Source: an uncultured Solirubrobacterales bacterium
GTDB lineage: Bacteria > Actinomycetota > Thermoleophilia > Solirubrobacterales > Solirubrobacteraceae
Reading direction: 5' to 3'
Assembly: GCA_963715495.1 (NCBI GenBank)
Contig: OY970247.1
Location: 2,132,219 to 2,196,218 of the forward strand
Length of the DNA stretch: 64,000 nucleotides
The notes beneath the pieces were generated by a model. That model made no database searches. It was not told the DNA's origin and worked only from the letters and a program-made list of their open reading frames with translations. The translations under genes were made by a program, and so were the position numbers. Positions within the stretch are counted from its first letter, which is position 1. Every line of letters starts with the position of its first letter. Of this stretch, positions 5,311-25,822 are shown in pieces.

Positions 5311-5342
5311 TCTCCGCCCACGAGGCTAGCGCCATACGTTTG

Positions 5343-5858: not shown

Positions 5859-6014
5859 CCCATCACTGCGGGCCCATTAAAAGCCTTCCGCAACGCCGAC
5901 GGCTGCGATGAGCGGCGCCGACTGCAAAGCGATGAAAGAATTGGCTTGCGGCTCACCCATCCAATCAGCCCGAGCCGGGACCCGTCGAAATCCGTGAGGC
6001 CGCCCGCGGGGGGT

Positions 6015-8416: not shown

Positions 8417-9280
8417 ATGAGCTCGATCCGCACAAACGCCGCCGCCGCGATGCTGGGAGTCAGCCCGAACACGCTGCGCAGCTGGGAGCGGCGGTTCGGC
8501 TACCCGATGCCCCAGCGCACCGAGGGCGGACACCGCCAGTTCGAGCTGACCGAGATCGAGACCCTGCGCCAGGCGTTCGCCGAGACGCACGACATCGCCT
8601 CGGCCGTGTCGATCGTCCGCGAGCGTGGCGAGGGACCCTCCTCCCCCGCGCGCCTGCAGTCCGCGCTGGCGACGTTCGGAGAGGAGGCCGCCGACCGCCT
8701 GCTCGAAGAGAGCCTCGCGGTGCGCTCGGTCGAACGCACCGTCGAGTCCGTCCTGCTGCCTGCCGTGGAGCTGCTCGAGGACGGTTCGTCCGAGCGCGCG
8801 TTCGCGCAGCGTTACGCAACCGGCTGGCTCGCCGCCGCGACCCGTGTGGCCCCCCCGGCCTCGCGCGATGAGAGCGCGCTGATCTTCGACGGTTCGCGCC
8901 CGAGCAATCTCGACGCCCTGCACGTGCAGGCGCTGGAGCTGTTCCTGCGCCGGGGCGGCCTGCGCGTGCTCACGCTTCCGGTCGAGCTGGACGCCGACCG
9001 CGTCGGCAGCGCGCTGCGCGCGCTGCGCCCGGGCGCGATCGTGCTCGCGGGCTCCGGCACAAATGCCTCAGCCGACGTCCTGGGGCGGCTCGTCTACGCC
9101 TCTCGCCAAGCCGAGCCCGGTGTCGATGTCTTCGACTACCGCTGCGCCCTCCCCGAGACGGGCGCTTCGACCGTCAAGCGCATCGGGCCCGGCCCGACCG
9201 CCGCCGCCGAGCAGCTGCGCGAGCGACTCACGGGCGTGGTGCCGGCGCATCCCGCGGTCGCTGCGGCCCACATCTCTTAA
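8417..9280 (+). CDS. MerR-family regulator with a degenerate cobalamin-binding-like C-terminal module (CarH/LitR architecture)
   Basis: MerR HTH GVSPNTLRSWERRFG..RTEGGHRQF, helical cap, Rossmann-like C-terminus; no ExH or WxnEH motifs. Confidence 0.8.
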   Translation: MSSIRTNAAAAMLGVSPNTLRSWERRFGYPMPQRTEGGHRQFELTEIETLRQAFAETHDIASAVSIVRERGEGPSSPARLQSALATFGEEAADRLLEESLAVRSVERTVESVLLPAVELLEDGSSERAFAQRYATGWLAAATRVAPPASRDESALIFDGSRPSNLDALHVQALELFLRRGGLRVLTLPVELDADRVGSALRALRPGAIVLAGSGTNASADVLGRLVYASRQAEPGVDVFDYRCALPETGASTVKRIGPGPTAAAEQLRERLTGVVPAHPAVAAAHIS

Positions 9281-10666
9281 GGCGTATCCCGCTGGGCCCG
9301 CACGTCTGATCGCACCCGGTTCTTCTGGACCCTGCTCGCAACCAGAGAGAACGTATCCCGGGTCCTCGGCGCGAGCAGTAGCGCAGTTCACACCGTCGTG
9401 TTCGCGAGCGGGCCCGGCGTGAAAGATGCGGCCACGGAAGACGACGAAGTTGATTGACGTCACGATGAGTATCGTCGTCAGGTAGACGACCTCCACGGGA
9501 ACGCCCAAGAGACCCGGGAGTCGAGCGGTACTGAGAGCTGTGACTCCGTACTGGGTGCCGGCCACCAGCAGATAGCGAGCGACCTGACGATGGGCGGGCA
9601 AGGCGAACTGGCCGGGATGCCTCCAGACGAACAGGCGTTGAAGCGTGAAGTGGAAGACCATCCCCAAGGCGAACCCGATCGCAAGCGCAATCTGGAAGGG
9701 CACGGCGAGCTCACTGTGAAGCAACGTCGTGGTCGTCAGGTAGACGAGCGCGACGAAGCCGCCCGACAGCACGAAGCGCAAGCCCTGACCGAGCAGTCCC
9801 GACTTGGGTGAGCGGATGTCGCGCAAGATCCTACGCGTCGCATGCAACGGCCTCCACGAGGTGGCCGCGGACTCAGACATACCCGGTCGCATCGGCAGGC
9901 GTTGTCCGCGACGTGCCGCGCCGCGCGCGGTATTCGGTGGAGCCGTGCGCAGAAAAGCGTCGGTCTCATACAGCGCCGCCGGCGTTCCGATCTCATAGAA
10001 CCGTTTCGTTGCCGCGACGCCGCACAGCTCTCCGCGACGCGCCAAGCGCCCATAGAGAATCGCGAGATCGCGCTCGCCTTCGGGGGCCGCCTCGACGGCG
10101 CAGGCCCGCAGCCCGCCGAGGCCATAGTCGATCCAGCGCATCGCCGACGTCGGAGCGTGCTTGTCGTATGCCACGACGCGGCCGCGTTCGTAGACGGCGT
10201 TCGAGATATCCCAGCGGCCGTCGTTGCGAAGCACAGTCATCAGCGCGGGAAGCCCGCTCCCACGCCAGGCCTGGTCGGCTGCGGCGTAGTCGATGCGCAG
10301 ATAGGAGTCGCCGTAGAGCACGAGGAAGCGCTCACCAAGCAAGGGCAGCGCGCGCCGCACGGCTCCGAGTGTCCCGTCGAGGTCGGGAGCGTCGAAGCTG
10401 TAAGCGATGCGTACCCCGAAGCGCTCCTCGCCGATCCGCTCGACGATCATCTCACCGCGGTAGCCGACGCACAGCACCACCTCCCGCGCCCCGTGGGTTG
10501 CCAGCAGGCGCAATTGATGGATCAGAAACGGCTCGCCCGCGACGTCCAGCAGCGGCTTGGGGACATCGCGCACGCGCGTGCCCAGGCGCGTGCCCAGCCC
10601 TCCGGCGAGGATGCACACGGGCGGCAGGCCGTCGATGGAGCTACCGCCGCTCACCGGGCTACTCAT
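9068..10666 (-). CDS. Sugar-1-phosphate nucleotidyltransferase (HddC-like) in frame with a GtrA-family flippase domain
   Basis: LAGGLGTRL..PKPL, LYGDSY, EIGTP (about 10666-9950), then a four-helix GtrA-like domain RFVLSGG..FHFTLQRLFVW..NFVVFRGRIF (about 9790-9420) with no stop between; internal ATGs at 9892 and 9880. The C-terminal tail overlapping the MerR gene is doubtful. Confidence 0.75.
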   Translation of the reverse strand: MSSPVSGGSSIDGLPPVCILAGGLGTRLGTRVRDVPKPLLDVAGEPFLIHQLRLLATHGAREVVLCVGYRGEMIVERIGEERFGVRIAYSFDAPDLDGTLGAVRRALPLLGERFLVLYGDSYLRIDYAAADQAWRGSGLPALMTVLRNDGRWDISNAVYERGRVVAYDKHAPTSAMRWIDYGLGGLRACAVEAAPEGERDLAILYGRLARRGELCGVAATKRFYEIGTPAALYETDAFLRTAPPNTARGAARRGQRLPMRPGMSESAATSWRPLHATRRILRDIRSPKSGLLGQGLRFVLSGGFVALVYLTTTTLLHSELAVPFQIALAIGFALGMVFHFTLQRLFVWRHPGQFALPAHRQVARYLLVAGTQYGVTALSTARLPGLLGVPVEVVYLTTILIVTSINFVVFRGRIFHAGPAREHDGVNCATARAEDPGYVLSGCEQGPEEPGAIRRAGPAGYALRDVGRSDRGMRRHHARESLAQLLGGGGRAGPDALDGRSARLGEGAAVVEDIDTGLGLARGVDEPPQDVG

Positions 10667-11747
10667 CCCAGCCATGATGGGACTCGATGATGTACTTGGG
10701 CCGATCTCGAGACTCGTCGTAGATTCGTCCGACGTACTCGCCGATCACGCCCAGCGAGAGCATCTGGATGCCGCTGAAGAACGACACAATGAGCACAATC
10801 GTGGGATTGCCGACCGGAAAGGGGATGCCACCGATCTTCAGTCCCAGGTAGGCGAGCGCCAGAGTGAAGGCCAGTCCCGCCAGGATCATCCCGACCAGCG
10901 AGATCAGGTGCAACGGGTAACGCGAGAACCCAACGATGCCGTTCAGCCCGATCGCCAGCGAGCCCCAGAAGCGGTTGTACTTGCTCGAGCCGGCAGCCCT
11001 GGAGTCGCGATCGTACGGAACGCTGGATTGAGGAAACCCGACCAGGCCGACCAGGCCCCGCAGAAATCCATGGCCCTCCTTCAGGGCAACCACGTTGTCG
11101 ACGACGCGGCGGCTCATCAGGCGGAAGTCGCCCGTGTTGCGTGGAATGTCGACGTCTGCGATGCGTTTGATCACGCGATACCCGGCGGCGGCGACGATGC
11201 GCTTGGGGATCGTCTCGCCCGCGCGCGTGCGCCGCTGCGCGTAAACGACATCGTCGCCTGCACGCCAGCGCGCGACGAGCTCGGGGATCAGCTCGGGAGG
11301 ATCCTGAAGATCGCAGTCGATCACCACCACCGCGTCACCCGAGGCGGCCTCGAGGCCCGCGATGGTTGCCATCGGCTGGCCGAACCTGCGGGAGAAGCGC
11401 AGCATCTTCACTCGCGGGTCCTCCTCGCGCAGGCCCAAGATCGTCTCCTCTGTGCGATCGGTGCACGGATCGACGCTGAAGACCAGCTCCCACTCCATAT
11501 CGATGCCCAGCATGACGTTCGTGAGACGCTCGTAGACTCGCCGGATGTTGTCCTGCTCGTTGTAGGTGGGGACGACGATGCTGAGCATCTGAGCGGCGGA
11601 TCCACCGTCTGGGCGCACCGTCCGCTTCGTCGCGGAGCCGGCCCTGCGCTCGGTCGAGCTCACCGGTCGCCTCGCGGATCTCACCGTCCTTCCCGCAGAG
11701 CTCACCGTGCGTCCAGCCGAGGTCGTCGTGCGTCCCGCCATGCTCAT
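10659..11747 (-). CDS. GT2 polyprenyl-phosphate glycosyltransferase (GtrB/YkcC/ArnC-like)
   Basis: VVPTYNEQ, FSRRFGQ, IDCDLQDPP, GDFRLMSR, two C-terminal TM helices, EYVGRIY.E..RP.Y. Confidence 0.9.
   Translation of the reverse strand: MSMAGRTTTSAGRTVSSAGRTVRSARRPVSSTERRAGSATKRTVRPDGGSAAQMLSIVVPTYNEQDNIRRVYERLTNVMLGIDMEWELVFSVDPCTDRTEETILGLREEDPRVKMLRFSRRFGQPMATIAGLEAASGDAVVVIDCDLQDPPELIPELVARWRAGDDVVYAQRRTRAGETIPKRIVAAAGYRVIKRIADVDIPRNTGDFRLMSRRVVDNVVALKEGHGFLRGLVGLVGFPQSSVPYDRDSRAAGSSKYNRFWGSLAIGLNGIVGFSRYPLHLISLVGMILAGLAFTLALAYLGLKIGGIPFPVGNPTIVLIVSFFSGIQMLSLGVIGEYVGRIYDESRDRPKYIIESHHGWDE
11610..11741 (-). repeat. Imperfect 21-nt coding repeats (AGRTTTS/AGRTVSS/AGRTVRS/ARRPVSS...) at the GT2 N-terminus
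   Basis: Heptapeptide periodicity visible in the translation. Confidence 0.65.
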
Positions 11748-12686
11748 CGGCTCTCCTCCAAACGCGAGAGCACCGTCAGGCCGCGAGCCCCAAACGGCAG
11801 CCGCACGCCGCCGGAGAGCAATGCCTCCTCGACACGACAGGCGATGCGACCGAAGAGCGAATCGCTCGTACGCTCGATATCGCTCATCACCTTGCGTTCG
11901 AGCGCCCGCCCCCGAAGGTGCGCGTGGCGGCGTCGATTGCGCTGCTTGACGGCCCAGAACGCCGGGTAGAGGAACGCCCCCAGGTGGATGTCCTCGACTA
12001 CCCGCAGCCCCACATTCCCGGCCTTTCGAGCGAGCTCGCCTCGAGCGTAGCGGCGCTCGTGACCGAGGAAGCGGTCATAGCAGTCGTAGTTGCCCGGGCC
12101 CACAGGGACGACGATCACCGCGTGGGCGCCGGGGCGCAAGATTCGGGAGATCTCGGCGAGCGCCCGTTCGTCGTCGGGCACGTGCTCGAGCAGGTTCGCG
12201 CTCACGGCCGCGTCTACGCTCGCGTCCGGGAGTGGCAGCATGCACACATCGGCTTGGAGCAGCAGCGCGTCCGGGACGTTTTCATGCGCCTTGCATAGCC
12301 CGCTTGCCACGAGATCCACGCCGATCAGGGTGGCGTCGGGGAGGAGACTCCTACGCAGATCTTCGAGCAGGTACCCGGTCGAGCAGCCGAGATCGATGAG
12401 CGTGGGCGCCTGGGGGAGCCGCCCGAGCCGGGCGAGCATCGCGCGACGAGTCCAAACGTCGATGAAGTGTGTACGGCTGCTCTCCTGGTGAAGCTGCTCG
12501 AGGTCCGTCCGACCAGTTGACCGCATGCCTGGCGTGGACGTAGCTGAGAAAGGGTTGGCGAACATCGTCCTCCTCGGTCACCCAGCCCTCGTCGAACGGC
12601 GGAACGCGCTGGGCGCCCGGTGGCGAGCGCAGTCCCGCCGGCGTGCCGCTCATCGAGACGGCGGCGCTCATAGGAGAGCTCTTCAT
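11744..12686 (-). CDS. Class I SAM-dependent methyltransferase, one +1 frameshift at about 12507 as sequenced
   Basis: ATG 12686 overlaps the SDR stop (ATGA) and reads ..QPFLSYVHARHAVNWSD; the next frame gives DLEQLHQESSRTHF..IDLGCSTG..LLEHV. Junction is TGG TCG GAC [G] GAC CTC GAG. Confidence 0.8.
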
Positions 12687-13525
12687 GCGTGCACCTCCGC
12701 CGGGACGGCGGTGAAGAGCATGTCGTCCACCCGCCTGAGCGTCGCGAAGTCGGGCTCGGCGGCGAGCCGGCGACGGAAGCCCGCGTCGCGCCAAGGGTCC
12801 CAGCGGGCGGAGATCAGCTTGCCTGTGAACGAGGTGTCGGCGTTGTTCTCGAGCAGCAGACAGACGAGCTCGGCCGCCTCGCCAATCGGGTCTCCGCCCT
12901 GCTGCAGCTCGGCACGCGTACGATCGAAGTAGTCGGCGCCCGCCAGTTCGCGACCGGCCGCAATCGTGCTCTGGTGAATGCCTGTCGCCACAAACCCGGG
13001 GGCGATGCAGTTGACCCGCACACCGTCGCCCGCCAGCTCGGCCGAGATGTTCTCGGTGAGACGTGCGACGGCTGCCTTGGATGCCGCGTAGGCATCGAAG
13101 CGAGGCAGCGGCCCGGTCGCTCCCCCGCCGCCGAACGTCACGACGGCGCCTGCACTCGCGCTCAGCCCGGGCAGGCAGGTGTGAATCGCGAGCAGCGTCC
13201 CGACGACGTTGATCTCGAGCGTGTGGCGAAAGTCCGCCGGCGTGTAACTCCCGATCGGACCGATCGGGTCGAGCACCGCGGCTGCGCACACCAGCCCGTG
13301 TGTATCCCCCAGGCTGGGCGCGAGCCGCTCCCAGGCAGCTTCGTCGCAGACGTCCAGCGCGAAGACCGCGTGTCCATCGCCGGGAAGCTCGCGGCGAGCC
13401 TGCTCGAGCGCATGCTCGCCGCGAGCGAGCAGCGTCACGCGCCATCCACGCTCCGCGAGCATGACCGCGATCGCGCGCCCGATGCCCCGCGATCCTCCGG
13501 TGATGAGCACGCCACGGTCACTCAC
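12683..13525 (-). CDS. Short-chain dehydrogenase/reductase (SDR)
   Basis: TGGSRGIG, YAASK, VNCIAPG. Confidence 0.92.
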   Translation of the reverse strand: MSDRGVLITGGSRGIGRAIAVMLAERGWRVTLLARGEHALEQARRELPGDGHAVFALDVCDEAAWERLAPSLGDTHGLVCAAAVLDPIGPIGSYTPADFRHTLEINVVGTLLAIHTCLPGLSASAGAVVTFGGGGATGPLPRFDAYAASKAAVARLTENISAELAGDGVRVNCIAPGFVATGIHQSTIAAGRELAGADYFDRTRAELQQGGDPIGEAAELVCLLLENNADTSFTGKLISARWDPWRDAGFRRRLAAEPDFATLRRVDDMLFTAVPAEVHA

Positions 13526-13585
13526 GCGACCACCGCCCGTCTCATGTGACCACCGCCTGTCTCACGCGACCACCGCCTGTCTCAT
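13521..13585. repeat. 20-bp tandem repeat x3 at the Gfo/SDR junction, encoding two 7-aa coupled mini-ORFs
   Basis: ctcacgcgaccaccgcccgt / ctcatgtgaccaccgcctgt / ctcacgcgaccaccgcctgt. Confidence 0.9.
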
Positions 13586-14590
13586 CTCCGCGTAGGGACT
13601 CGCGGCATAGGCAGCCTCGATCTGCTCCCACACATACCGCGCGTCGTGCAGATCGCCGCGCAGCAGACGCGCATCGCCGGCATCGATGGCATCCGTAAAG
13701 CTCGTCCACTCCCGCGCCCACGAGTCGTCCTCGTCGGGGTAGGTGAGCTCCTCGACGTCCGGCGGCCCCAGCTTCGGTCCCATCCGGTAGATCCGCAGCC
13801 GCTGAGGCCCGTAGCTGCGCACCAGCCCGTTCACTTCGAGCTTCGCCTCGCGGCAGTAGATCTCCAGCGAGAACAGGTTCTTCCACTCGGTCCAGCTCAC
13901 GTGCAGCATCGCCCAGGGATCGACGCGCGAGCTCGCATCGCCCAGCAGCAGCGCCGCGCTGTCCTCCACGGGCGTATCCCAGAACTGAGTGCGCAGCAAC
14001 GCGGAGTGCAGCGGCAACGGGCCGGCGAGCCAGTGACTCAGATCGAGCAGGTGCGTACCCTGGTCGACCAGCTCGCCGCCGCCCGAGCGCGCAGGCTCGG
14101 CACGCCACTCGCGGTCATAGCCGAGGCGACCGCCGTGCCCGTAGCGCGCGCACACGTGCATGAGCGTCCCATGACATCCGCAACGGAGCTCCTCGGCGGC
14201 GCGAGCGATCCCCGGGTGAAAGCGGTGGTTGAATCCCACCTTGACCAGGCATCCACTGGCGCGCTGGCACTCGATCAGACGGTCGACCTCGGCGGTGGAC
14301 AGCCCCGCCGGCTTCTCCACGAGCACATGCGCTCCGGCGAGCAGCGCCCGCTCGGCGATCCCCGCCAGCTGGTCATGAACGGTGGATACGACGACGACTT
14401 CCGCGCCGACCGCAAGCAGCTCGTCCAGGGTGGCGCACGCAGTGGCGTCATAGCGCCCGGCGAAGCTGTTGGTGACGTCGGCGTTCACGTCATAACAGGC
14501 GAGTAGGGCGTCGTCCGGCGCGAGCGCCGCCGCGCGCTTGGCTCCGATCAGCCCGCAGCCGACGATGGCCACACCCAGAGGGCGTCTCAT
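13562..14590 (-). CDS. Gfo/Idh/MocA family oxidoreductase
   Basis: VGCGLIG, HVLVEKP, VGFNHRF, GGELVDQGTHLLD. Confidence 0.92.
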   Translation of the reverse strand: MRRPLGVAIVGCGLIGAKRAAALAPDDALLACYDVNADVTNSFAGRYDATACATLDELLAVGAEVVVVSTVHDQLAGIAERALLAGAHVLVEKPAGLSTAEVDRLIECQRASGCLVKVGFNHRFHPGIARAAEELRCGCHGTLMHVCARYGHGGRLGYDREWRAEPARSGGGELVDQGTHLLDLSHWLAGPLPLHSALLRTQFWDTPVEDSAALLLGDASSRVDPWAMLHVSWTEWKNLFSLEIYCREAKLEVNGLVRSYGPQRLRIYRMGPKLGPPDVEELTYPDEDDSWAREWTSFTDAIDAGDARLLRGDLHDARYVWEQIEAAYAASPYAEMRQAVVA

Positions 14591-15573
14591 GCGTACTCGC
14601 CCGCATAGGCGCCGCCGAACTCGAAGTCGAACGTCAGCTCAGGCGCGCCGGCGGCCGCCATCGCCTGCCTGGTGTCCTCCGGCCGGCGGCTGTATACGAG
14701 CAGGAACCCGCCGCCGCCGGCGCCCACCAGCTTGCCGCCGATCGCGCCGCTGCCGCGGGCGAACGTATAGAGCCGGTCGATGCGCTCGTCGGTCATCCCC
14801 GGTGAGCGATTGCGCTTGTGTTCCCAGTGCTCGTGCATGAGCTCGGCGTAGCCCTCGAGGTCTCCCTCGCCCAGCAGCCGGTAGATCTCGCGTCCGAGCT
14901 CCTTGGTGCGGTGCAGGTTCTCGAGCATCTGCTCGTCGCCCGCCTTCGAGCGCGCGTCCTGATCGGCGAGCATCTTCGAGGCCGAGCGCGCCTCGCCGGT
15001 GTAGAACAGCAGCAGTTGATCGCGCAGGTGCCTGAGCACGGTCGAGTCAAGCTCTAGTGGCTCGACGTCCACCTCCCCGCCGGGACGGAAGGTGTAGGCG
15101 CAGATTCCCCCGTGGGCGGCTACGTAAGGGTCCTGCTTGCCCACCGGCTCGCCGAGCGCTTCCATCTCGATCCCGCACGCGGCCTCGGCGAGGTCCCTGG
15201 GGCTGATCGAGGTGTGACGGGCTCGGATCAGGCCCTTGATCAGGCAGACCGTGTAGGCGCCCGAGGAGCCCATGCCGGTCCCGGCGGGCACGTCGGCGAC
15301 CGAGGCGATCTCCAGCGGACTGCCGCACCAATGGCGCCGCAGACCCTCGCGCAGGATCGGATGACGGATCTGCTCGATCTCGTCGACCTCCTCGAGCTCT
15401 GAGTACTTCATGCGATAGCGACGCTGGAAGACCGTGTGCGTAAGCATGTAGACGTACTTGTCGATCGCTCCGGACACGAGGAATCCACCGTGCTCGCGGT
15501 AGTAGGAGGGCAGGTCGGTACCCCCACCGCCGAGGGAGATCCGCAGCGGCGCGCGGCTGAAGATCACGCTCAT
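14587..15573 (-). CDS. hddA: GHMP-family sugar kinase (heptose-7-phosphate kinase HddA-like)
   Basis: RAPLRISLGGGGTD, PAGTGMGSSGA, GKQD, GGKLVGAGGGGF; ATG 15573 overlaps the epimerase stop. Confidence 0.88.
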   Translation of the reverse strand: MSVIFSRAPLRISLGGGGTDLPSYYREHGGFLVSGAIDKYVYMLTHTVFQRRYRMKYSELEEVDEIEQIRHPILREGLRRHWCGSPLEIASVADVPAGTGMGSSGAYTVCLIKGLIRARHTSISPRDLAEAACGIEMEALGEPVGKQDPYVAAHGGICAYTFRPGGEVDVEPLELDSTVLRHLRDQLLLFYTGEARSASKMLADQDARSKAGDEQMLENLHRTKELGREIYRLLGEGDLEGYAELMHEHWEHKRNRSPGMTDERIDRLYTFARGSGAIGGKLVGAGGGGFLLVYSRRPEDTRQAMAAAGAPELTFDFEFGGAYAGEYA

Positions 15574-16619
15574 CGTGCCCGCTCCACACCGCCCAGCGCA
15601 GCGTCTGTGCCGCCCGACCCGACCGCGCACTCCAGCTCGCGTCGATCGACTCCGGCCACCCGCTCCCGCCAGGCGTACTCGTTTGCGTCGAGCCACTCCA
15701 GCGTGCGCAGCACCGCTTGGCGGATCGTCAGCCGCGGGCGCCATCCGAGGCTGCGTACACGACCGACGTCCAGATGGATCAGCGGGCTGTCGCCGGCCCA
15801 ACCGCGACGCCCGCCGGTGTGCTCGATCTCCGGCGAGAGCGAGAGATGCTCGGCGATCATGCGCACCGAGTCATCGACGAGCATGGTCTCCTGCACGCCG
15901 AGGTTGTAGATGTGAGCGCCGGGCTCGGAGTGGTGACGCTCGGCGGCCGTCAATATCGCGGAGAGGCAGTCTTGGATATACAGATAGGACTTCTCCTGGC
16001 GACCGTCGCCGAGCACCCGCAGGCGCGTCGGATCGCGCTTGAGCGAGCAGTAGAAATCGGAAACGTGTCCGTGCGTGTAGCGCTCGCCCAGGATCGAGAC
16101 AAAGCGACAGATCAGGCCGGTGAAGCCGTAGCCGGCCGCATATGCGGCGATCAGGCCCTCGCCCGCGAGCTTGGACGCGCCGTAGAGCGAGGTCTGAGTC
16201 GGAAAGGGAACGTCCTCGGGTGTCGGGAACATCTCGGGCTCGCCGTAGACCGAGCCGGTCGAGGCGAACGCGATCCGCTTCACCCCCCGGGCGCGCATCG
16301 CCTCGAGCACGTTTGACGTGGCGATCGTGTTCTGCTCCAGGTCGCGCCGCGGATGCTCGAGGCCCCTGCGCACATCGGCGTTGGCTTGCAGGTGAAAAAC
16401 CCAGTCGCAGCCCTCGAGGGCATCCTCGAGCACGGCCGGGTCGAGCACATCTCCCTCGACGAGCCTCGCCCGTCCCGCACTCAACACGTCGGCCACGAAC
16501 TCGCGCCGACCCGTGCGAAAGTCGTCGACGATCACGACGTCGACGCCCTGGGCGCACAGTCGATCGGCGAGGTTGCTGCCGATGAACCCGGCGCCGCCGG
16601 TGACACACGCCCGTCTCAC
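15570..16619 (-). CDS. NAD-dependent nucleotide-sugar epimerase/dehydratase
   Basis: VTGGAGFIGSNL, ASTGSVYG, YGASK; start taken as GTG 16619. Confidence 0.9.
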   Translation of the reverse strand: MRRACVTGGAGFIGSNLADRLCAQGVDVVIVDDFRTGRREFVADVLSAGRARLVEGDVLDPAVLEDALEGCDWVFHLQANADVRRGLEHPRRDLEQNTIATSNVLEAMRARGVKRIAFASTGSVYGEPEMFPTPEDVPFPTQTSLYGASKLAGEGLIAAYAAGYGFTGLICRFVSILGERYTHGHVSDFYCSLKRDPTRLRVLGDGRQEKSYLYIQDCLSAILTAAERHHSEPGAHIYNLGVQETMLVDDSVRMIAEHLSLSPEIEHTGGRRGWAGDSPLIHLDVGRVRSLGWRPRLTIRQAVLRTLEWLDANEYAWRERVAGVDRRELECAVGSGGTDAALGGVERAR

Positions 16620-16681
16620 GGTCGGGACCCGAACACGCTCGCGGGACGGGGCTCGGCTGCTGCACGGGCGGTCGGCATCAT

Positions 16682-17401: not shown

Positions 17402-17491
17402 TCACCGGAGGGGACCTTAACAAGATCTCTTTTGATCTAAATGTTTCTGATATTTGCCCTGTTGCCCCCTTATCTGCTCTCATGATTTCCC

Positions 17492-19423
17492 GTGATCGAA
17501 AAATTGACCTCATCCTCCGCAAAGCTGGTGCTTTCCCGTCAGACTGCCCGCCCGTCGACGGGCCGGCACTCCACCGCTCTATCCACGGCTATATCACCAC
17601 AAGTGTCTCCGACCGGCAGCCGCCCAGACGACTCAGCCGAGGGTCATGATCGCCTGAGAGGGCTGCGAGTCGACGCGCTCGCGGCGACGGCCGCCGTGCT
17701 CGTGGTGGTGGCGCCGCTGCTGTTCACCGACTCGGGCTTTGCCGGCGACTTCACCAACCACCTGTGGCTCGTCTGGGTCGAGGGCAAGGCCCTCGCGCAG
17801 GCGGGGCACCCCAGCTACTTCATCAACGCGAGAGGCGTGGGCATGTTCTACCCCTTCTTCGCTTTCTACGGAGGAACGCTTTACGTGATCACCGGCGCGA
17901 TAGCCGATCTGACCGGCGATCCCGTGAGCGCCTTCGTCGGCGTCACGGTACTGGCCGTCGCGGGCTCCTACGCGGGGGTGCTGTGGCTCGGACGAGAGTT
18001 GGGCCTGAGGGGCTGGACCGCGCACGCGCCGGCCCTCGTCGTCGTCACCAGCGCTTACTACATCACGAACCTGTACGGGCGCGCCGCGTGGCCGGAGTTC
18101 ATGGCCACCGCGGTGCTCTCACCGCTCATCGCCAGTGGGGTGCACTTGGCGCGCGCGAAGACATGGCGAGCGTGGCCCGTGCTGGTGTTCGTGGTGTCCG
18201 CGGTGATCTTCACCGGGAGCCACAACATCACCTTGATATGGGGCTCGACGATGGTCGCGCTGGCGCTGCTCATCGCATGGCTCGTGTTTGGCGCCCCACG
18301 GCGCCTGCCCTACCGCCGCCTCGCCCAGGTCGGAGGGCTCGGGGTGGTGGCCGTGCTCGTCAACGCCTGGTTTCTGCTCCCCGACCTCGCCTACGCGAGG
18401 AACGTCGTGATCGGCAGCAGGCCTTCGAGCAGCACGGCGACGTTTTTCAACACGCCCGGCGTGCTGCTCGATCCCCTGCGTCTCGTGCCCAGCCTGTCGA
18501 CCACCCCGGCGCTCTACGTCCAAGCGCCCGACTGGTTCCTGGCATGGGGGCTCGTGGCCGGGGCGCTGCTGCTGTGGCGCCGGTCGGCGAGCCGGCGCCT
18601 GCGTCGTGCCTGGATCGGCGTGGCGGTCCTGGTCGCGCTGGTGCTGGGCATGATCATGGTGAAACCGTTTTTGAATGCCGTGCCGTTCCCTTACGACGAG
18701 ATCCAGTTCGGCTACCGACTCGGCAGCTACCTCTTCTATGCCGTCGCCGTACTTGTGCTCGTCGGCGCGCTGGCGCTTGCGCGGGCGACCCCCACAGGCT
18801 CGCAGCTCACCGTCAAAGGGTTGCGCCTTGCGCTGATCGGCGTCTGCGTCATCAGCCTTGGGCTGTGCGTGTGGCAGCTGTGGGTTCCCAACCCGCTGAT
18901 GGCGGGCTCATACAAGCATCGCCGGGAAGCCCTGGTGAGTGTGAACACCCTGCCTCAAAGCTGGTATGACCCCGAATCCTATCGCGATTTGAAGGCCCCA
19001 CAGGTGGCGGCGTCGCTGAAACGCCTCCTGATCATCCAACCGAGCTGGGTGCGGGGAGATCGTGTCGACGCCTGGCTGGAAGTCCCGCCCGGGTCGGCGC
19101 CGATCCAGACCAACATCAGCGCGGGAGGGTATTTCGTGCACATCTCCGGTCTGGAACGAGTGGGCCGAGGCTACTCTGACGACGTCGTGGTACGCCGGAT
19201 CCACGGCGGCAGCGGTCCCGTGCACGTCGTGGTGGAAACGACGCACAGCCTCACCATCGGCGTGGCCCGGGCATTGAGCATCCTGGCGATCCTCGTCCTC
19301 CTCGTCATCCTCGCCGTGCTCCTCATCCGCGACGTGCGTGCGCGAGCGCGCAAGCGATCACGACCCCGATCCGGCTCGACCTCGGCGGCGCAACAGCTGA
19401 GCGACTCCGTGGGCAAGATCTGA
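17492..19423 (+). CDS. Polytopic membrane protein, putative GT-C glycosyltransferase; start uncertain (possibly GTG 17603)
   Basis: About 12 TM helices, D-x-x-N-H loop after TM1 (GDFTNHLW), YPFFAFYGG, YYITNLYGRAAWPEF, soluble C-terminal domain; paralogous to 24047-25822. Confidence 0.7.
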   Translation: MIEKLTSSSAKLVLSRQTARPSTGRHSTALSTAISPQVSPTGSRPDDSAEGHDRLRGLRVDALAATAAVLVVVAPLLFTDSGFAGDFTNHLWLVWVEGKALAQAGHPSYFINARGVGMFYPFFAFYGGTLYVITGAIADLTGDPVSAFVGVTVLAVAGSYAGVLWLGRELGLRGWTAHAPALVVVTSAYYITNLYGRAAWPEFMATAVLSPLIASGVHLARAKTWRAWPVLVFVVSAVIFTGSHNITLIWGSTMVALALLIAWLVFGAPRRLPYRRLAQVGGLGVVAVLVNAWFLLPDLAYARNVVIGSRPSSSTATFFNTPGVLLDPLRLVPSLSTTPALYVQAPDWFLAWGLVAGALLLWRRSASRRLRRAWIGVAVLVALVLGMIMVKPFLNAVPFPYDEIQFGYRLGSYLFYAVAVLVLVGALALARATPTGSQLTVKGLRLALIGVCVISLGLCVWQLWVPNPLMAGSYKHRREALVSVNTLPQSWYDPESYRDLKAPQVAASLKRLLIIQPSWVRGDRVDAWLEVPPGSAPIQTNISAGGYFVHISGLERVGRGYSDDVVVRRIHGGSGPVHVVVETTHSLTIGVARALSILAILVLLVILAVLLIRDVRARARKRSRPRSGSTSAAQQLSDSVGKI

Positions 19424-19963
19424 GGCTGCCAGATCGGGGTTTGCTTGACCCGAGCGCTTCCGAATGCTGTTGGGATGCTCGAGCAGCACCGTCCGGCACC
19501 CGGCGGCTTGACCGGCGGCGACATCGGCATCGGTGTCTCCGACCATCCAGCAAACGCCCAGATCGAGCTCCAGCGCACGGGCCGCGTCAAGCAGCATCCC
19601 GGGGGCCGGCTTACGACAAGCACACGGCCCGGAGAGCTCGGGCACGATCCCATCCGGGTGGTGCAGGCACAGGCGCGAGGTCTCCAGACGCACGCCCGCC
19701 TGCGCCAGCAGCTCGATCACCTGCGCGTGCACGGCTCCAAGACGCTCGACGGTGACCTTGCCCTTCGCGGCCGCCGGCTGATTGGAGACGCACACCAGCG
19801 CGAAGCCGGCCCCCATGAGCCCGCGCGCAGCCTCAGCCGCCCCCGCCACCAAGCGCACGTCCTCGACCTTCAGCGGCGACTCCCATGCGCCGGAGGATGG
19901 ATCGGGAACGAGCTCGTTGAGAACGCCGTCTCGATCCAGGAACACCGCCGCAGTGCCGCTCAC
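19358..19963 (-). CDS. gmhB: HAD-IIIA heptose 1,7-bisphosphate phosphatase
   Basis: FLDRDGVLN, VSNQP, CLHHP..CACRKPAPGM, WMVGD...D. Confidence 0.9.
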   Translation of the reverse strand: MSGTAAVFLDRDGVLNELVPDPSSGAWESPLKVEDVRLVAGAAEAARGLMGAGFALVCVSNQPAAAKGKVTVERLGAVHAQVIELLAQAGVRLETSRLCLHHPDGIVPELSGPCACRKPAPGMLLDAARALELDLGVCWMVGDTDADVAAGQAAGCRTVLLEHPNSIRKRSGQANPDLAASDLAHGVAQLLRRRGRAGSGS

Positions 19964-19982
19964 CACGCCGCACCAGACGCGC

Positions 19983-20627
19983 TCACCGCTCGCCGACGCC
20001 GGAGAGATCGGCGGCATCGGCATCGGCGGTGAGCGACTCCCAGTGGCCCCGCTTGACGGCCAGGCCCGGGTGGGAGACCAGGGCGTGCCATACGACCGCC
20101 TGGAAGGACTCGACCAGCGGCGTGCGCAGCTCGGGCGGGGGCCCGATCAGAATCGCGACGTTCGCGAGCCGGGCGAGCGTTCCGCCGGGAGCGCCGACCA
20201 CGCCGTAGATCGACGCGCCGGCCTCGCGCGCGGCCTCCATCGCGGCCACCAGGTTCGTCGAGACGTTGCGCTCACGCGAGCCGCCTCCAACCGAGAAGAC
20301 GAGCAGCGCGTCGCGCTCGGACAGGCGGGAGACCGCGAGCCACGCGCTGAACGATGTCTCCCAACCATCGTCGTTGGTGCGCGCCGTGAGCTCTGAGACG
20401 TTGTCGGTGGGCGTGTAGCTCTCCAGCAAGCAGAGCTTGCGGAAGTCGTTGACCGCATGCGAGGCGTGGCCGGCGCCACCCCCGACGCCGAGGATGAACA
20501 GCCGCCCGCCGCGGTCGCGCACCTCGGCCAGACCACTGGTCATGGCGTCAAGCTGCACCGGGTCGATTGCACGCGCCAGGTCCGCGGCGGCGGCGAGATA
20601 CGTGGAGCTGTGATCGGTTGCGCTCAT
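19983..20627 (-). CDS. gmhA: SIS-domain phosphoheptose isomerase (GmhA-like)
   Basis: LGVGGGAGHASHAVNDFRK, LTARTNDDG, FSVGGG, TPLVESFQ. Confidence 0.85.
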   Translation of the reverse strand: MSATDHSSTYLAAAADLARAIDPVQLDAMTSGLAEVRDRGGRLFILGVGGGAGHASHAVNDFRKLCLLESYTPTDNVSELTARTNDDGWETSFSAWLAVSRLSERDALLVFSVGGGSRERNVSTNLVAAMEAAREAGASIYGVVGAPGGTLARLANVAILIGPPPELRTPLVESFQAVVWHALVSHPGLAVKRGHWESLTADADAADLSGVGER

Positions 20628-20674
20628 CGCTGGTCTGGCCGATCGTAAATCGATCTCGTCGTTGATTCCACTTA

Positions 20675-20693
20675 TTGAAGACATTGTTTTCAA
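20675..20693. promoter_or_regulatory. AT-rich 9-1-9 imperfect palindrome between divergent gmhA and ileS
   Basis: TTGAAGACA-T-TGTTTTCAA. Confidence 0.4.
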
Positions 20694-20763
20694 CTGGATT
20701 TCGACTTAAATCTCATGAGCGTGTCGATCGGGCCCATCGTCACAGGCGGGTCGCGCACCTACA

Positions 20764-23700
20764 ATGAGCCGCCCCGTGACGGCCCCATCACGAAACCCGC
20801 TGATACCCCCGCGCAAGATCGATCCCAAGCAGGATCTGCCCGCGCTGGAGCGTGAAGTGCTGGAGCGCTGGCGCGAGCGCGACGTGTTCGCCGAGTCGCT
20901 GCGGATGCGCGAGGGTGCGCCGCGGTGGGTGTTCTACGAGGGTCCCCCCACCGCCAATGGTCCTCCGGGCTCCCATCACGTGCTGTCGCGCGTGTTCAAG
21001 GACATCTATCCGCGCTACCAGACGATGCGCGGGCGGCTGGTGCAGCGCAAGGGCGGCTGGGACTGTCACGGGCTGCCGGTGGAGATCGCGGTTGAACGGC
21101 AGCTGGGAATCACGACCAAGGCCGAAATCGAGGACGAGCGCATCATCGGGATCGAGCGGTTCAACGCCGAGTGCCGCGAGTCCGTGTTCGCCTACCTGCA
21201 GGAGTGGAATCGTCTGACCGAGCGGATCGGCTTCTGGATCGACCTCGACGACGCCTACCGGACGCTGGACGAGTCCTACATCGAGTCGGTGTGGTGGGCG
21301 CTCTCGGAGATCGACCGGCGGGGGCTGCTGTACGAGGGACACAAGGTCGTGCCGTACTGCTACCGATGCGGGACGGCGCTGTCCTCGCACGAGGTCGCGC
21401 TCGGGTATCAGGACGTGGTCGACCGGACCGTGTATGTGCGGTTGCCGGTGCACTCCCCCGCTGCGCCGCTGCAAGCTGCAGACAAGCTGCTGATCTGGAC
21501 TACGACCCCGTGGACGTTGCCGGGCAACGTCGCGGTCGCGGTCGGGCCTGAGGTCGAGTACGTGCGGGCCAGACATGGCGACGAAACGCTCGTGCTCGCC
21601 GCGGCGCTGATCGAGAAGGTGCTCGGCGACGGGGCCAAGGTGCTCGATCGCTTTCCGGGCAGCAAGCTGGTCGGACAGCGGTACGAGGGCCCGATCTTTC
21701 TCGAAGGACCGCATGGCGCCGCCAGTCTGGACGACAGCTTTCCAATCGTCGCCGGAGACTTCGTCACGACCGATGACGGCACGGGAATCGTCCACCTGGC
21801 GCCGGCGTTCGGCGAGGACGACTTCAGAGTCGCCGCGGCGGTCCCCGAGGTGCACTTCGACCCAACCGACCCGCATACGCTCTTTAACCCGGTGCGGCCC
21901 GACGGCACGTTCGACCAGCGCGTGCGCGGATACGAGGGTCGCGAGTACGACGGGCGGGTTGTCAAGGACCCGGATGTCACAGACGATCTGATCGACGACC
22001 TGGACAAACGCGGGCTGTTGCTGAGAGAGGAGCGCTACGAGCACTCCTACCCGCACTGCTGGCGGTGCGAGACACCACTGATCTACTACGCAAAGAAGTC
22101 CTGGTACATCCGCACGACGGCGGTGCGCGAGCAGATGCTTCAGGCGAACGAGACGGTGGACTGGCACCCGCCGGGCGTCAAGCACGGGCGGTTCGGGGAC
22201 TGGCTGTCCAACAATGTGGACTGGGCGCTGTCGCGCGAGCGCTACTGGGGCACTCCCCTGCCGGTGTGGCGGTGCGGGCGGGGGCACACGCACACGATCG
22301 GCTCGTTCGCGGAACTGGCCGAGCTTTCGGGGGTCGCGTCGACGCTCGCCGACCATCACCGCCCGTATGTCGACGACGTGGAGTTCCCGTGCCCCCACCT
22401 CCAGGACGGCGCACCCGCGGCGTGCGGAGAGCCGATGAGGCGCGTGCCGGAGGTGATCGACGTGTGGTTTGACTCGGGCGCGATGCCGTTCGCCCAGCAC
22501 CACAGTCCGTTCGAGCACGAGCAGGAGTTCACGCAAAACTATCCGGCGGACTTCATCTGCGAGGCGCAGGACCAGACGCGGGGCTGGTTCTACTCGCTGC
22601 TGGCGATCGCGACGCTGCTGGAGCGAGAGGCGCCGTACCGCAACGTGGTGTGCCTCGGACTGATTCTCGACTCCGACGGCCAGAAGATGTCCAAGTCCAA
22701 GGGCAACACGGTCGAGCCGTGGCAGGTGCTCGACACATACGGCGCGGACGCGTTCAGGTGGTACTTCTTCACCTCCAAGCAGCCGTGGGACGGCTACCGC
22801 TTCTCCGCGGAGACGATCGGCGAGGGCGTGCGCCTGTTCCTCAAGCAGCTGTGGTCGACCTACTACTTCTACGTGCTCTACGCGCACGCCTCAACGCAGG
22901 AGCTGACGGACCCGGCGCGGGCACAGAGCGACGGATCGCAGGCCGGCGGAGCCTCGACCGCGGGCGCCGACGACGCGCTGGACCGCTGGGCGCTGTCGCG
23001 CACGGCGGGCACGGCGGAGCTGGTGGCGAAGCGCCTCGACGCCTATGACACGACGTCGGCGGGCAGGGCGATCGCGGGTCTCGTAGACGAGCTGTCGAAC
23101 TGGTACGTGCGTCGCTCGCGCAGGCGCTTCTGGGACGGCGATCCGGCGGCGTTTCAGACGCTGCGCACATGCCTTCTGACGGTGGCGAAGCTGCTGGCGC
23201 CGTTCTGCCCGTTCGTCGCGGATGAGATCTACGACAACCTCGACGGAGCGCTTGCGAGCGTGCACCTGTGCGACTTCCCAAGCGCCGAGGACGTCGGCGC
23301 GCGCGATGAGCAGCTCGAGCGGTCGATGGCGCTGGCGCGGGAGACCGTGCGGCTGGGGCTGGGCGCGCGCGGCAAGGCGAAGATCAAGGTGCGCCAGCCG
23401 CTCGGCGAGGCGGTCGTGGTCGCGGACGGGCGCGAGCGCGAGGCGATCGAACGGCTGGCGGATGTGGTGCGCGAGGAGCTGAACGTCAGGCGCATGCGGT
23501 TCGTGGCGGCCGCGGATGAGCTGGGCAGCTATGAGGTGAAGGCCAACTACAGGACGCTCGGCCCGTTGTTCGGCAAGGACATGCCGCTGGCGGCCGAGGC
23601 GATCGCGTCACTCGACCCCGCGCGGGTGGCGCATGCGCTGCGCGACGGCGGCGAGATCGGCATCTCGGTGGGCGCGCGCGAGCACACGCTGACGGCGGAA

Positions 23701-24093
23701 AACCTGATCCTCACGATGCGAGCGCCCGACGGCTACAGCGTGGAGCGCGAGGGCGCGCATGCGGTTGCGCTGGACTTGGCGATCGACGACGACCTGCGCC
23801 GCGAGGGCCACGCACGCGAGATCGTGCACGCGGTCCAGAACGCGCGCAAGACGGCCGGGCTGCAGGTGGAGGACCGGATCGAGCTGGCCCTGTACGGCGC
23901 CCCGGAGATCAGCGACGCGGCGGCCGCCCACCGCGACTACATCGTGGGCGAGACGCTCGCGGCGGCACTGGACCTCGGCGACCGCGCCGCGCTGCAGAGC
24001 GCGGCGATGGACTACTCAGAGCAGGCCGAGATCGACGGCCTCGATCTCACGATCGCCCTGTCGCGCCGGCTCGGCTCTGACGCGCACGACTGA
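20764..24093 (+). CDS. ileS: Isoleucine--tRNA ligase (long type-2-like form)
   Basis: EGPPTANGPPGSHH (HIGH variant), GWDCHGLP, WTTTPWTLP, GTGIVH.APAFG, DWALSRERYWG, DQTRGWFY, KMSKSKGN. Confidence 0.95.
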   Translation: MSRPVTAPSRNPLIPPRKIDPKQDLPALEREVLERWRERDVFAESLRMREGAPRWVFYEGPPTANGPPGSHHVLSRVFKDIYPRYQTMRGRLVQRKGGWDCHGLPVEIAVERQLGITTKAEIEDERIIGIERFNAECRESVFAYLQEWNRLTERIGFWIDLDDAYRTLDESYIESVWWALSEIDRRGLLYEGHKVVPYCYRCGTALSSHEVALGYQDVVDRTVYVRLPVHSPAAPLQAADKLLIWTTTPWTLPGNVAVAVGPEVEYVRARHGDETLVLAAALIEKVLGDGAKVLDRFPGSKLVGQRYEGPIFLEGPHGAASLDDSFPIVAGDFVTTDDGTGIVHLAPAFGEDDFRVAAAVPEVHFDPTDPHTLFNPVRPDGTFDQRVRGYEGREYDGRVVKDPDVTDDLIDDLDKRGLLLREERYEHSYPHCWRCETPLIYYAKKSWYIRTTAVREQMLQANETVDWHPPGVKHGRFGDWLSNNVDWALSRERYWGTPLPVWRCGRGHTHTIGSFAELAELSGVASTLADHHRPYVDDVEFPCPHLQDGAPAACGEPMRRVPEVIDVWFDSGAMPFAQHHSPFEHEQEFTQNYPADFICEAQDQTRGWFYSLLAIATLLEREAPYRNVVCLGLILDSDGQKMSKSKGNTVEPWQVLDTYGADAFRWYFFTSKQPWDGYRFSAETIGEGVRLFLKQLWSTYYFYVLYAHASTQELTDPARAQSDGSQAGGASTAGADDALDRWALSRTAGTAELVAKRLDAYDTTSAGRAIAGLVDELSNWYVRRSRRRFWDGDPAAFQTLRTCLLTVAKLLAPFCPFVADEIYDNLDGALASVHLCDFPSAEDVGARDEQLERSMALARETVRLGLGARGKAKIKVRQPLGEAVVVADGREREAIERLADVVREELNVRRMRFVAAADELGSYEVKANYRTLGPLFGKDMPLAAEAIASLDPARVAHALRDGGEIGISVGAREHTLTAENLILTMRAPDGYSVEREGAHAVALDLAIDDDLRREGHAREIVHAVQNARKTAGLQVEDRIELALYGAPEISDAAAAHRDYIVGETLAAALDLGDRAALQSAAMDYSEQAEIDGLDLTIALSRRLGSDAHD

Positions 24094-25822
24094 GACGAAT
24101 CCCGCGCGCGGCGATCAACGCCAGCCCGACGACCAAGACGACGAGTGCGATCAGGCTGACCAGCTGCCCGGCGACGACGGGGAGGTGATTGGCCGGCGCG
24201 ACCGAGATGGTGGCGGTCGACGCGGATGCACTTGTGCCGCCGGCCGATCCGCCGGCGTCAGGCGTCACTTCAAGCACATCGTCGGCCCGGAGATCCGTGC
24301 CCACGATCTTGGCGCCCTTGACATCCACCAGGTCCGATCCGGCTCGGATGTTCGTCGCCACCAGTCCTTCGGGCGGCACCCGCACGACCTCTGACAGGCG
24401 GCCATCACTTGCGACGCTCGCGATCGGGAAGTCGACCCTTGGTAGCGGTTGACTGTTGATCGGTAGCCGTCCGTCGACGTAGTCGAGCTGCCCTTCCCGT
24501 TGATGTACGGGCGTGTAGTAGGAGGCCAGCGCCGAGCTGCGACTCCTGCCGTCGGGGTGGACGCCCGTCTGTTCGATGGCTCCTATCACCGACACGACGG
24601 CTATCGGCGCGAGCAGCCACGTCCAATACCGTAGGCGGCGGCCTCCGCCGCCCGCCATGACGAGGACGGCCAGCATCGCGCCGCTGATGCCCAGCAGCAC
24701 GAAGCTCTCGAGTCGAAAGCCGAACTGCAGCGTCGCGTAGACGCGTGGAAGAGCGAGGATCAACCCGGCGTGTGTCATGGTCACCAGCAGCAGAACCGTC
24801 GTTCCGGCAATTACCAGGAGAGCCCGCATCCAGGCTCCCGTTCTCCGATTAAAAGCCAGCATGGCGATGCTCGCGAGGACCCACCCAACCGCGAGAATCG
24901 GCAGCGAGAGGGTCACGATGCTGCCGGACGCCCTCGCGCGCGAGAGGGTGAACAGGTGTCGAGCGGCGACCGTGAACATGGTCTTCTGCAGCAGCGCTCT
25001 GAAGGTGGGGTAGGACCTTGCGATGACCGTGTGTGACTCGTAGGCGGCGGCCGGCAGTAGAAACCAGGCGCTGACGAGCAGCGCGGGAATTATCAGCGCA
25101 GCCACGCGGAGCACTCCGGCCCGCGTTACGTTCCGACGAGCCTCGGGCACGCATAGGAGGATCGCAACAGCCACGATGATCAAGATCGTGGAGCCCCAGA
25201 TCATCGTCAGCAGGTGGCTCCCGAAGAAGACGACGCTGCCGGCGATTAGTGCCAGCGCGGGTCCAAAGCGCAGCTGAGGCCCGCGCAACACGCTGAGTCC
25301 CGCGGCGATCATCAGCGGCATCATCGAGACCGCGAGGAACTCCGGCCAGTCGCCGAGCGCGTAGATCGTCGTGAGGTAGGAGGCAGACGTGACGAACACG
25401 AGACCCGGGACGTGCGCCGGCCAGCCCCGCACGCCGAAACCGCGCGCGAGCCAGTACCAGCCGCCGTAGGCGGCGGTGAAGCCCAGCAGATAGGTCAGGA
25501 TGTACGTCGCCAGTGGGGAGTTGCCCAATACGAGCGACAGCGTCCCGGCGAGGGCGTAGATGGTTCCGCCGTAGAACGCGTACACCGGGTAGAAGATGCC
25601 GTTGGAGTAGTTGAGAAAGAGGCTGGGCAGGTGGTGGGCGCGGATCGCGAGACTCTGGTGCCACAGATACCAGAGGTGGTTCAGCCAGTCGTTGTTGAAT
25701 GTGGCATTGGTGAACAGCAGGGGCCACGCGACCGCGGCGAGCACGACCAGCGCGCCCCCGGCTTCGATGGCCGATCGCGCCGACGGCGGCCCCGGCCGGC
25801 TCACCAGGTTCTCGAGCGGCAT
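24047..25822 (-). CDS. Polytopic membrane protein, putative GT-C glycosyltransferase, paralogue of 17492-19423
   Basis: NNDWLNHLW, YPVYAFYGG, YLTTIYALGDWPEF, FFGSHLLT, LQFGFRL align with the paralogue. Confidence 0.7.
   Translation of the reverse strand: MPLENLVSRPGPPSARSAIEAGGALVVLAAVAWPLLFTNATFNNDWLNHLWYLWHQSLAIRAHHLPSLFLNYSNGIFYPVYAFYGGTIYALAGTLSLVLGNSPLATYILTYLLGFTAAYGGWYWLARGFGVRGWPAHVPGLVFVTSASYLTTIYALGDWPEFLAVSMMPLMIAAGLSVLRGPQLRFGPALALIAGSVVFFGSHLLTMIWGSTILIIVAVAILLCVPEARRNVTRAGVLRVAALIIPALLVSAWFLLPAAAYESHTVIARSYPTFRALLQKTMFTVAARHLFTLSRARASGSIVTLSLPILAVGWVLASIAMLAFNRRTGAWMRALLVIAGTTVLLLVTMTHAGLILALPRVYATLQFGFRLESFVLLGISGAMLAVLVMAGGGGRRLRYWTWLLAPIAVVSVIGAIEQTGVHPDGRSRSSALASYYTPVHQREGQLDYVDGRLPINSQPLPRVDFPIASVASDGRLSEVVRVPPEGLVATNIRAGSDLVDVKGAKIVGTDLRADDVLEVTPDAGGSAGGTSASASTATISVAPANHLPVVAGQLVSLIALVVLVVGLALIAARGIRLSRARQSRAGATGRS

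Follow-up and report, generated by a model that had tools for sequence, protein, structure and literature searches.

What becomes of a sugar whose biosynthetic genes lie among those for a lipid-linked glycosylation system is the question raised by a locus of an uncultured Solirubrobacterales bacterium. The locus lies within a stretch of 64,000 nucleotides (contig OY970247.1, positions 2,132,219 to 2,196,218 of the forward strand), referred to here as the window, and a first-pass annotation had read it as a heptose or octose pathway wired to an extracytoplasmic glycosylation machine. The present analysis indicates that the locus is an accessory island which probably builds a seven- or eight-carbon sugar, loads it onto a lipid carrier and attaches it at the cell surface. 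As to the cargo, the chances of a modified heptose are put at about even, an octose is a tentative alternative, and some other compound takes the remainder.

We infer the following route, its substrates, products and acceptor included. A dedicated transaldolase would make sedoheptulose-7-phosphate from fructose-6-phosphate and erythrose-4-phosphate or, less likely, octulose-8-phosphate from a three-carbon donor and ribose-5-phosphate. A SIS-domain protein would isomerize this ketose phosphate to an aldose phosphate, a GHMP kinase would phosphorylate C1, a GmhB-like phosphatase would take off the terminal phosphate, and a nucleotidyltransferase domain would make the nucleoside diphosphate (NDP)-sugar. 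A GalE-like epimerase, a Gfo/Idh/MocA (Gfo) oxidoreductase and a short-chain dehydrogenase/reductase (SDR) may alter the stereochemistry of the NDP-sugar, with the Gfo enzyme and the SDR together perhaps inverting a second center, and a methyltransferase probably adds an O-methyl group to the sugar at a stage that is not fixed. A GtrB-type family 2 glycosyltransferase (GT2) would then move the sugar onto polyprenyl phosphate, a GtrA domain would help to flip the lipid-linked sugar, and outside the membrane two GT-C paralogs would pass it on, at one or two sites, to an acceptor that is presumably either a surface protein or a glycopolymer of the wall.

Gene layout and the membrane components

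Genes in the window were picked by third-position GC content, with starts refined afterwards, and families were assigned by Pfam and NCBIfam profile searches of the encoded proteins. The window has a GC content of about 68% and belongs to a host genome that is a single contig of 3.17 Mb (94% complete); the named nearest relatives of its proteins belong to metagenome bins of Solirubrobacteraceae and Solirubrobacterales. The gene set spans window positions 9068-20693 and 24047-25822 in four transcription units. The first is a long minus-strand operon running from 17401 to 9068, in which the transaldolase is followed by the epimerase, the GHMP kinase, the Gfo enzyme, the SDR, the methyltransferase, GT2 and a nucleotidyltransferase-GtrA fusion. 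A 4-nt overlap of a start with a stop codon is found at three of these junctions (GT2 with methyltransferase, Gfo with kinase, and kinase with epimerase). The second unit is a divergent plus-strand gene for the membrane protein M643, the third is a short minus-strand pair running from 20627 to 19358 (SIS, then phosphatase), and the fourth is the minus-strand gene for a second membrane protein, M591, on the far side of the housekeeping gene ileS (20764-24093, plus strand). All of the gene classes named in the first-pass annotation were recovered where it had placed them. However, the range of 9068-25822 that it had assigned to the system includes ileS, which splits the set without being a member of it; a genome of the same genus that lacks the island (G083) has ileS in the same position.

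The GT2 (10659-11747, minus strand) had been predicted to be of the polyprenyl-phosphate type, and the prediction holds, as the protein is of the GtrB/ArnC type and carries two C-terminal transmembrane helices (residues 281-299 and 317-335). It matches the PgfS model with 239 bits, short of the cut-off of 500, and the ArnC model with 140 bits, in both cases over its full length. Its best solved relative is Synechocystis GtrB (5ekp; 251 bits, full length), with lower scores for ArnC (137) and dolichyl-phosphate-mannose synthase (DPMS; 82). The predicted GtrA domain is likewise present (PF04138; 52 bits against a cut-off of 26.1), but it has no separate gene. Rather, it occupies residues 300-414 (GtrA_DPMS_TM) of a protein of 535 amino acids (9068-10675, minus strand) whose residues 22-133 form an NTP_transferase domain (E 1e-12) and whose last ~120 residues look disordered. 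The same fusion, 455 amino acids long, is found in another Solirubrobacterales contig, L094. By Pfam, GT2 is the sole glycosyltransferase in the island apart from the GT-C pair. Because the nucleotidyltransferase is fused to GtrA, GT2 is inside the operon and no other glycosyltransferase is at hand in the island, the sugar and membrane halves appear to be wired together, as had been proposed. Elsewhere in the host genome (G000:C1:2944369-2945833), a second GtrB-like GT2, 42% identical to that of the island, stands beside a stand-alone GtrA, and this separate pair could serve ordinary sugars and leave the island pair free for a special one.

Neither M643 (606 amino acids; 17603-19423, plus strand) nor M591 (24047-25822, minus strand) belongs to a Pfam family. 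The two proteins are 31% identical to each other (E 4e-60) and are the only members of their kind in the host genome. AlphaFold (AF2) models of good confidence were obtained, with a predicted local distance difference test (pLDDT) of 83.5 and a predicted template modeling score (pTM) of 0.87 for M643, and with values of 77.3 and 0.83 for M591. When these models were compared with the PDB using Foldseek, the top 15 matches of M643 (AftA, STT3, AftD, AglB, ArnT, DPY19 and PMT) and the top 11 matches of M591 (ArnT, AglB, AftD, ALG12, STT3, DPY19 and AftA) were all GT-C enzymes. Thus, the earlier suggestion that these are GT-C-like proteins agrees with the predicted structures, which support a GT-C fold for both, although the template modeling (TM) scores, at 0.27-0.45 against solved GT-C structures, are modest and weigh against it. 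The catalytic acid of GT-C enzymes sits just past the first transmembrane helix. An aspartate just past the first helix, in the first outside loop, is invariant in the alignments of both the M643 type and the M591 type, and in M643 it belongs to the motif D-F-T-N-H-L-W. M643 also has a weak match to WsfD (E 8e-4). Taken together, M643 and M591 define a GT-C family for which there is no Pfam model. M591 belongs to the system despite the intervening ileS, since its ortholog (57-62% identity) is the immediate neighbor of the SIS gene in the contigs L092 and L094.

No match to LpxC was found in the host genome (a single contig, 94% complete), which fits a monoderm actinobacterium, the type of host that had been assumed. 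The accompanying remark that heptose metabolites are ALPK1 ligands is of no apparent relevance for an actinobacterium from soil.

Accessory status and distribution of the gene set

The island is accessory. Genome G083 has the same backbone of fumC (fumarase), an abhydrolase gene, ileS, trx (thioredoxin), polX and a family 4 glycosyltransferase (GT4) gene, without the sugar cassette or M591. In place of the 12-kb cassette it has 1.7 kb of unrelated DNA, and only 100 bp separate ileS from trx where M591 would lie. Neither tblastx nor blastn found traces of the island in this 1.7 kb, and the difference may reflect either insertion or deletion. Occurrence is equally patchy in wider samples. The transaldolase is found in 6 of 61 sampled genomes of the family and in 2 of 61 of the class, the kinase in 4 of 61 genomes (class and family samples), and M643 in 2 of 61 family genomes, both of which also carry the transaldolase. 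The presence and absence of the island among close relatives therefore offers natural controls for studies of envelope chemistry.

The complete module of 13 genes, with both GT-C types, recurs in the Solirubrobacterales contigs L094, where it lies among purine-synthesis (pur) genes, and L092, where it has yet another context. The set is thus co-inherited in three different genomic contexts, from which it follows that the clustering is not due to chance. The methyltransferase is part of the module in both contigs. The whole set moves together as a unit in L092 and L094, but not throughout. In L091 and L093 the GT-C pair has no sugar genes within 10 kb, and in L004 and L005 the transaldolase, GT2 and GT-C genes lie at the ileS locus with no kinase, SIS or phosphatase gene nearby. 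These four loci count against a single coupled system, in that linkage is not obligatory at short range, and they indicate that the parts are modular.

The sugar half of the island extends far beyond Solirubrobacterales. Species-representative genomes were scanned with an alignment of the transaldolase, and the neighbors within 10 kb of the best 80 loci were scored by tblastn; many of the loci with low counts are on short contigs. The 80 loci come from Actinomycetota, Acidobacteriota, Alpha-, Beta-, Gamma- and Deltaproteobacteria, Chloroflexota, Myxococcota, Planctomycetota, Spirochaetota, Patescibacteria and others. Near the transaldolase were found the SIS gene (62 of 80), the phosphatase (60), the kinase (51) and the nucleotidyltransferase (46), and at least three of these four core genes were found in 51 loci spread over at least nine phyla. 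Less frequent were the Gfo gene (25 of 80), the epimerase (24), the SDR (23) and a GtrB-like GT2 (18). The usual order in other phyla is epimerase, a gene like UDP-glucose dehydrogenase, Gfo, kinase, nucleotidyltransferase, SIS, phosphatase and transaldolase. Among representatives of the whole protein universe, the transaldolase is fused to a HAD domain in four proteins (P0242, P0247, P0264 and P0282) and to SIS in another (P0250). The sugar half is therefore a conserved, uncharacterized cassette of at least nine phyla, and the solution of a single product would annotate hundreds of genomes.

Within the same clade, other transaldolases are joined to GIY-YIG/NUMOD3 homing-endonuclease modules, and one to a module of Radical_SAM_2 and PDZ (P0261, P0383, P0318).

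In the acidobacterial locus L086, an enzyme of the UDP-glucose/GDP-mannose dehydrogenase family is fused to an SDR (3789-6074 of that locus, plus strand), a hint that other phyla may make the sugar as a uronic acid. A gene-sized gap between epimerase and SDR in other loci may hold a gene of this dehydrogenase family; the scan covered L086 alone. The cassette of L086 lacks a GT2 and is accompanied by GT4 transferases and a Wzy_C protein, and by its gene content the cassette may be able to feed ordinary GT4 enzymes of the Leloir type instead. Where a GT2 is present in other phyla, the cassette is often adjoined by large polytopic transmembrane proteins without annotation. No GT-C-family Pfam match was found in nine of ten such neighbors (eight had no match and one matched Polysacc_synt_3), and the remaining one had a weak match to YfhO. 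These proteins are candidate GT-Cs.

Such loci also bear on the idea that two unrelated systems merely adjoin each other in the island. GT2, GtrA and the GT-Cs would then use a common hexose or amino sugar, while the NDP-sugar would go to a Leloir transferase or become a soluble metabolite. The cassette of L086, which has GT4s and no GT2, the low frequency of GtrB-like GT2 genes in the cross-phylum tally and the GT-C pairs that stand apart from any nearby cassette in L091 and L093 would fit such an arrangement. It is nevertheless improbable, because the nucleotidyltransferase-GtrA fusion occurs in two genomes, GT2 and the methyltransferase lie inside an operon with overlapping start and stop codons, the island offers no other glycosyltransferase, the 13 genes are inherited together in three contexts, and ordinary sugars could be served by the GtrB/GtrA pair located elsewhere in the genome. 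A single system that both builds and delivers the sugar is the preferred interpretation.

The transaldolase and the nature of the sugar

The transaldolase (16682-17401, minus strand), which is encoded by the first gene of the long operon, exceeds the cut-off of the TIGR02134 model (325.5 bits against 281.95). Alignment to 1vpx and 3s0c reveals that the Schiff-base lysine (in VKIP), the catalytic glutamate (FEV) and the threonine (NVT) are retained. At the position that discriminates transaldolases from fructose-6-phosphate aldolases (FSA), the same alignment has phenylalanine (VFAGR) and not tyrosine, by which an FSA-type identity is ruled out. A word-indexed homolog search returned relatives at 81-100% identity only.

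Could this be a housekeeping enzyme of the pentose phosphate pathway that neighbors glycosylation genes by chance? Its unusual conservation (82-93% identity in more than 120 protein clusters from Solirubrobacterales) would suit such a role, as would the TIGR02134 equivalog score. Against this, the gene is missing from G083 and from 55 of the 61 family genomes sampled, it is linked across phyla to SIS, phosphatase and kinase genes and in some proteins fused to SIS or HAD, and the host genome has a second, unrelated transaldolase. As that second enzyme is an ordinary one, the island transaldolase is best understood as a dedicated copy, and a housekeeping role, highly improbable on this combined evidence, was rejected. 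The other transaldolase (G000:C1:2711770-2712795; 286 bits by Pfam) is part of an open frame of 689 amino acids and is possibly fused to another enzyme.

The four core enzymes that would act after the transaldolase belong to the same families as those of heptose synthesis. The kinase (14587-15573, minus strand; its ATG at 15573 overlaps the stop codon of the epimerase gene) resembles HddA and WcbL, and its best PDB relatives are heptose-7-phosphate kinases (3k85, E 3e-42, and WcbL, 4usk). Every PDB match of the SIS protein (19983-20627, minus strand), a distant GmhA relative, is a GmhA, and its metal and catalytic positions are H, D, E and H as in GmhA. The best PDB matches of the nucleotidyltransferase are MurU (4y7t) and HddC (5xhw). 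The phosphatase (19358-19966, minus strand) clears only HAD-IIIA/histidinol-phosphatase domain models, TIGR01656 among them (115.5 bits, cut-off 84.15). That the best solved relatives of the kinase, the isomerase and, with MurU beside HddC, the nucleotidyltransferase are heptose enzymes favors a heptose.

Several results weigh against this conclusion. The SIS protein scores 39.7 bits against the GmhA equivalog TIGR00441 (cut-off 209.45) and the kinase 133 bits against the HddA model NF049969 (cut-off 600). The phosphatase falls short of both GmhB models (PRK08942, 113.7 of 178 bits; TIGR00213, 89 of 149.6), and the nucleotidyltransferase matches the HddC model NF049965 with 76.7 bits of the required 300 and only in its N-terminal half. 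Because all four enzymes lie so far below the heptose cut-offs, their substrate may not be a heptose. The nucleotidyltransferase also matches a MurU model (82.9 bits) at least as well as HddC, and so the nucleotide may be GDP or another.

The alternative is an octose made by the logic of the lincomycin pathway, in which a three-carbon unit and ribose-5-phosphate would give octulose-8-phosphate and then an NDP-octose. Sasaki et al. in 2012 reportedly found that LmbR makes octulose-8-phosphate from a three-carbon donor and ribose-5-phosphate. The SIS protein, kinase, phosphatase and nucleotidyltransferase would here correspond to LmbN, LmbP, LmbK and LmbO, and the epimerase and the Gfo enzyme to LmbM and to LmbL/Z. 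The set of enzyme classes in the island matches the Lmb set, whose roles are listed in PMC4351081 and PMC12945683. The sub-threshold scores of the core enzymes fit an octose as well, and so does an insertion of six residues in the phosphate-binding loop of the SIS protein relative to GmhA. A dedicated transaldolase would be superfluous for sedoheptulose-7-phosphate, a central metabolite, in a genome that has another transaldolase, yet the dedicated enzyme almost always keeps its linkage with the pathway genes and in some proteins is fused to the SIS or HAD component. On the other side are the solved heptose enzymes nearest to the kinase, SIS protein and nucleotidyltransferase, and the lack of an LmbS-like aminotransferase, no aminotransferase domain having been found by Pfam among the island genes. 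The model TIGR02134, which we take to be an ordinary transaldolase annotation in bacteria such as Staphylococcus, also counts against an octose. No Streptomyces lincosamide locus was among the 80 loci returned by the transaldolase scan. An octose cargo remains a minority view, and it is with similar reserve that one may picture the widespread cassette as a source of NDP-octose, which in this organism a new GT-C family would bring to the surface on a polyprenyl-phosphate carrier. If this were true, an eight-carbon sugar other than 3-deoxy-D-manno-octulosonic acid (Kdo) would be a common envelope constituent across many phyla, and the cassette would be the ancestor, in primary metabolism, of the lincosamide octose pathway, so that the lincomycin sugar would trace back to an envelope pathway.

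Whether the cargo is the heptose given preference here or an octose, the tailoring genes suggest that it would be modified. The epimerase, an extended SDR of the GalE-like type (15570-16619, minus strand, with the start refined to a GTG at 16619; Pfam Epimerase, E 3e-49), has its best solved relatives among archaeal-type 4-epimerases (3ehe with 253 bits, also 8rdg and 3icp). The Gfo oxidoreductase (13562-14590, minus strand; PF01408 and PF22725) has sugar 3-dehydrogenases and 3-ketoreductases among its PDB matches, and its orthologs in other phyla, at 45-49% identity, lie within the cassette. The remaining two are a classical SDR (12683-13525, minus strand; adh_short, E 2e-36) and a class I S-adenosylmethionine-dependent methyltransferase (11744-12565, minus strand; Methyltransf_11, E 2e-20).

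Relation to known systems and neighboring genes

The sugars for which three-component glycosylation with lipid carriers has been described are hexoses, pentoses and amino sugars. With the O-antigen glucosylation systems of Shigella and Salmonella, with CsbB/GtcA/YfhO and with ArnC/ArnEF/ArnT, the island shares a GtrB-type GT2, a GtrA domain and GT-C folds, and the three features that define a GtrA/GtrB/GT-C system at the sequence level are present in it. It differs from these systems in its donor, which would come from a dedicated C7/C8 pathway initiated by a transaldolase and not from the pool of hexoses, pentoses or amino sugars, in the fusion of its GtrA to a nucleotidyltransferase, and in having two paralogous GT-Cs of a family without a Pfam model. 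Three-component systems for pentofuranoses have been reviewed (PMC11127046). Similar in part are also the Pgf system of Streptococcus mutans (PgfS, PgfM1, PgfE, PgfM2) and WsfC/WsfD of Paenibacillus alvei, in which an epimerase and two large membrane proteins are likewise found in a Gram-positive organism. It is the PgfS model that the island GT2 scores best against, albeit below the cut-off, whereas the cargo pathway is entirely different. The folds nearest to M643 and M591 among solved structures are those of mycobacterial AftA and AftD and of ArnT, which use polyprenyl-phosphate sugar donors. Identity to these enzymes is only 12-18%, with the modest TM-scores given above, and M643 and M591 differ from them in the periplasmic domain, where a small beta-sandwich precedes a C-terminal anchor helix.

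The pathway to GDP-D-glycero-alpha-D-manno-heptose in Aneurinibacillus, Campylobacter, Burkholderia and Yersinia employs the same four enzyme families (GmhA, HddA/WcbL, GmhB and HddC). The island misses the equivalog cut-offs of all four, adds a dedicated transaldolase, and would deliver its product to a lipid-phosphate carrier instead of cytoplasmic Leloir transferases. The lincosamide GDP-octose pathway proceeds through LmbR, N, P, K and O and then M, L, Z and S (PMC4351081, PMC12945683). Its full set of classes (transaldolase, isomerase, GHMP kinase, HAD phosphatase, nucleotidyltransferase, epimerase and Gfo-type dehydrogenase) is found in the island, the match being at the level of enzyme class. 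Unlike that pathway, the island has no aminotransferase, thiol-conjugation genes or antibiotic context and is wired to envelope glycosylation. The first-pass annotation knew of no described example of such a system, and in searches of the accessible literature, neither a lipid-linked donor of heptose or octose nor a heptose cluster that contains a transaldolase was found to be described. Thus, the delivery route is well known, while the cargo and the two GT-Cs have most likely not been described before.

Some other genes of the window are also of note. The isoleucyl-tRNA synthetase (IleRS) encoded by ileS carries a C-terminal DUF5915 domain and reaches about 800 bits with the models for MupA and MupB, far below their cut-off of 1900; it is not a mupirocin-resistance gene of the MupA/MupB kind. 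A MerR-family gene (8417-9280, plus strand), which is not present in the island-free G083, converges on the nucleotidyltransferase-GtrA gene such that the 3' ends overlap by ~210 nt. At the start of the window, an open frame (3-1262, plus strand) contains a second GmhA-like SIS domain (TIGR00441, 120 bits, below the cut-off) and adjoins genes for a HypF carbamoyltransferase and a NicO nickel transporter (2629-4194 and 4151-5362). This region looks like a hydrogenase-maturation neighborhood unrelated to the island.

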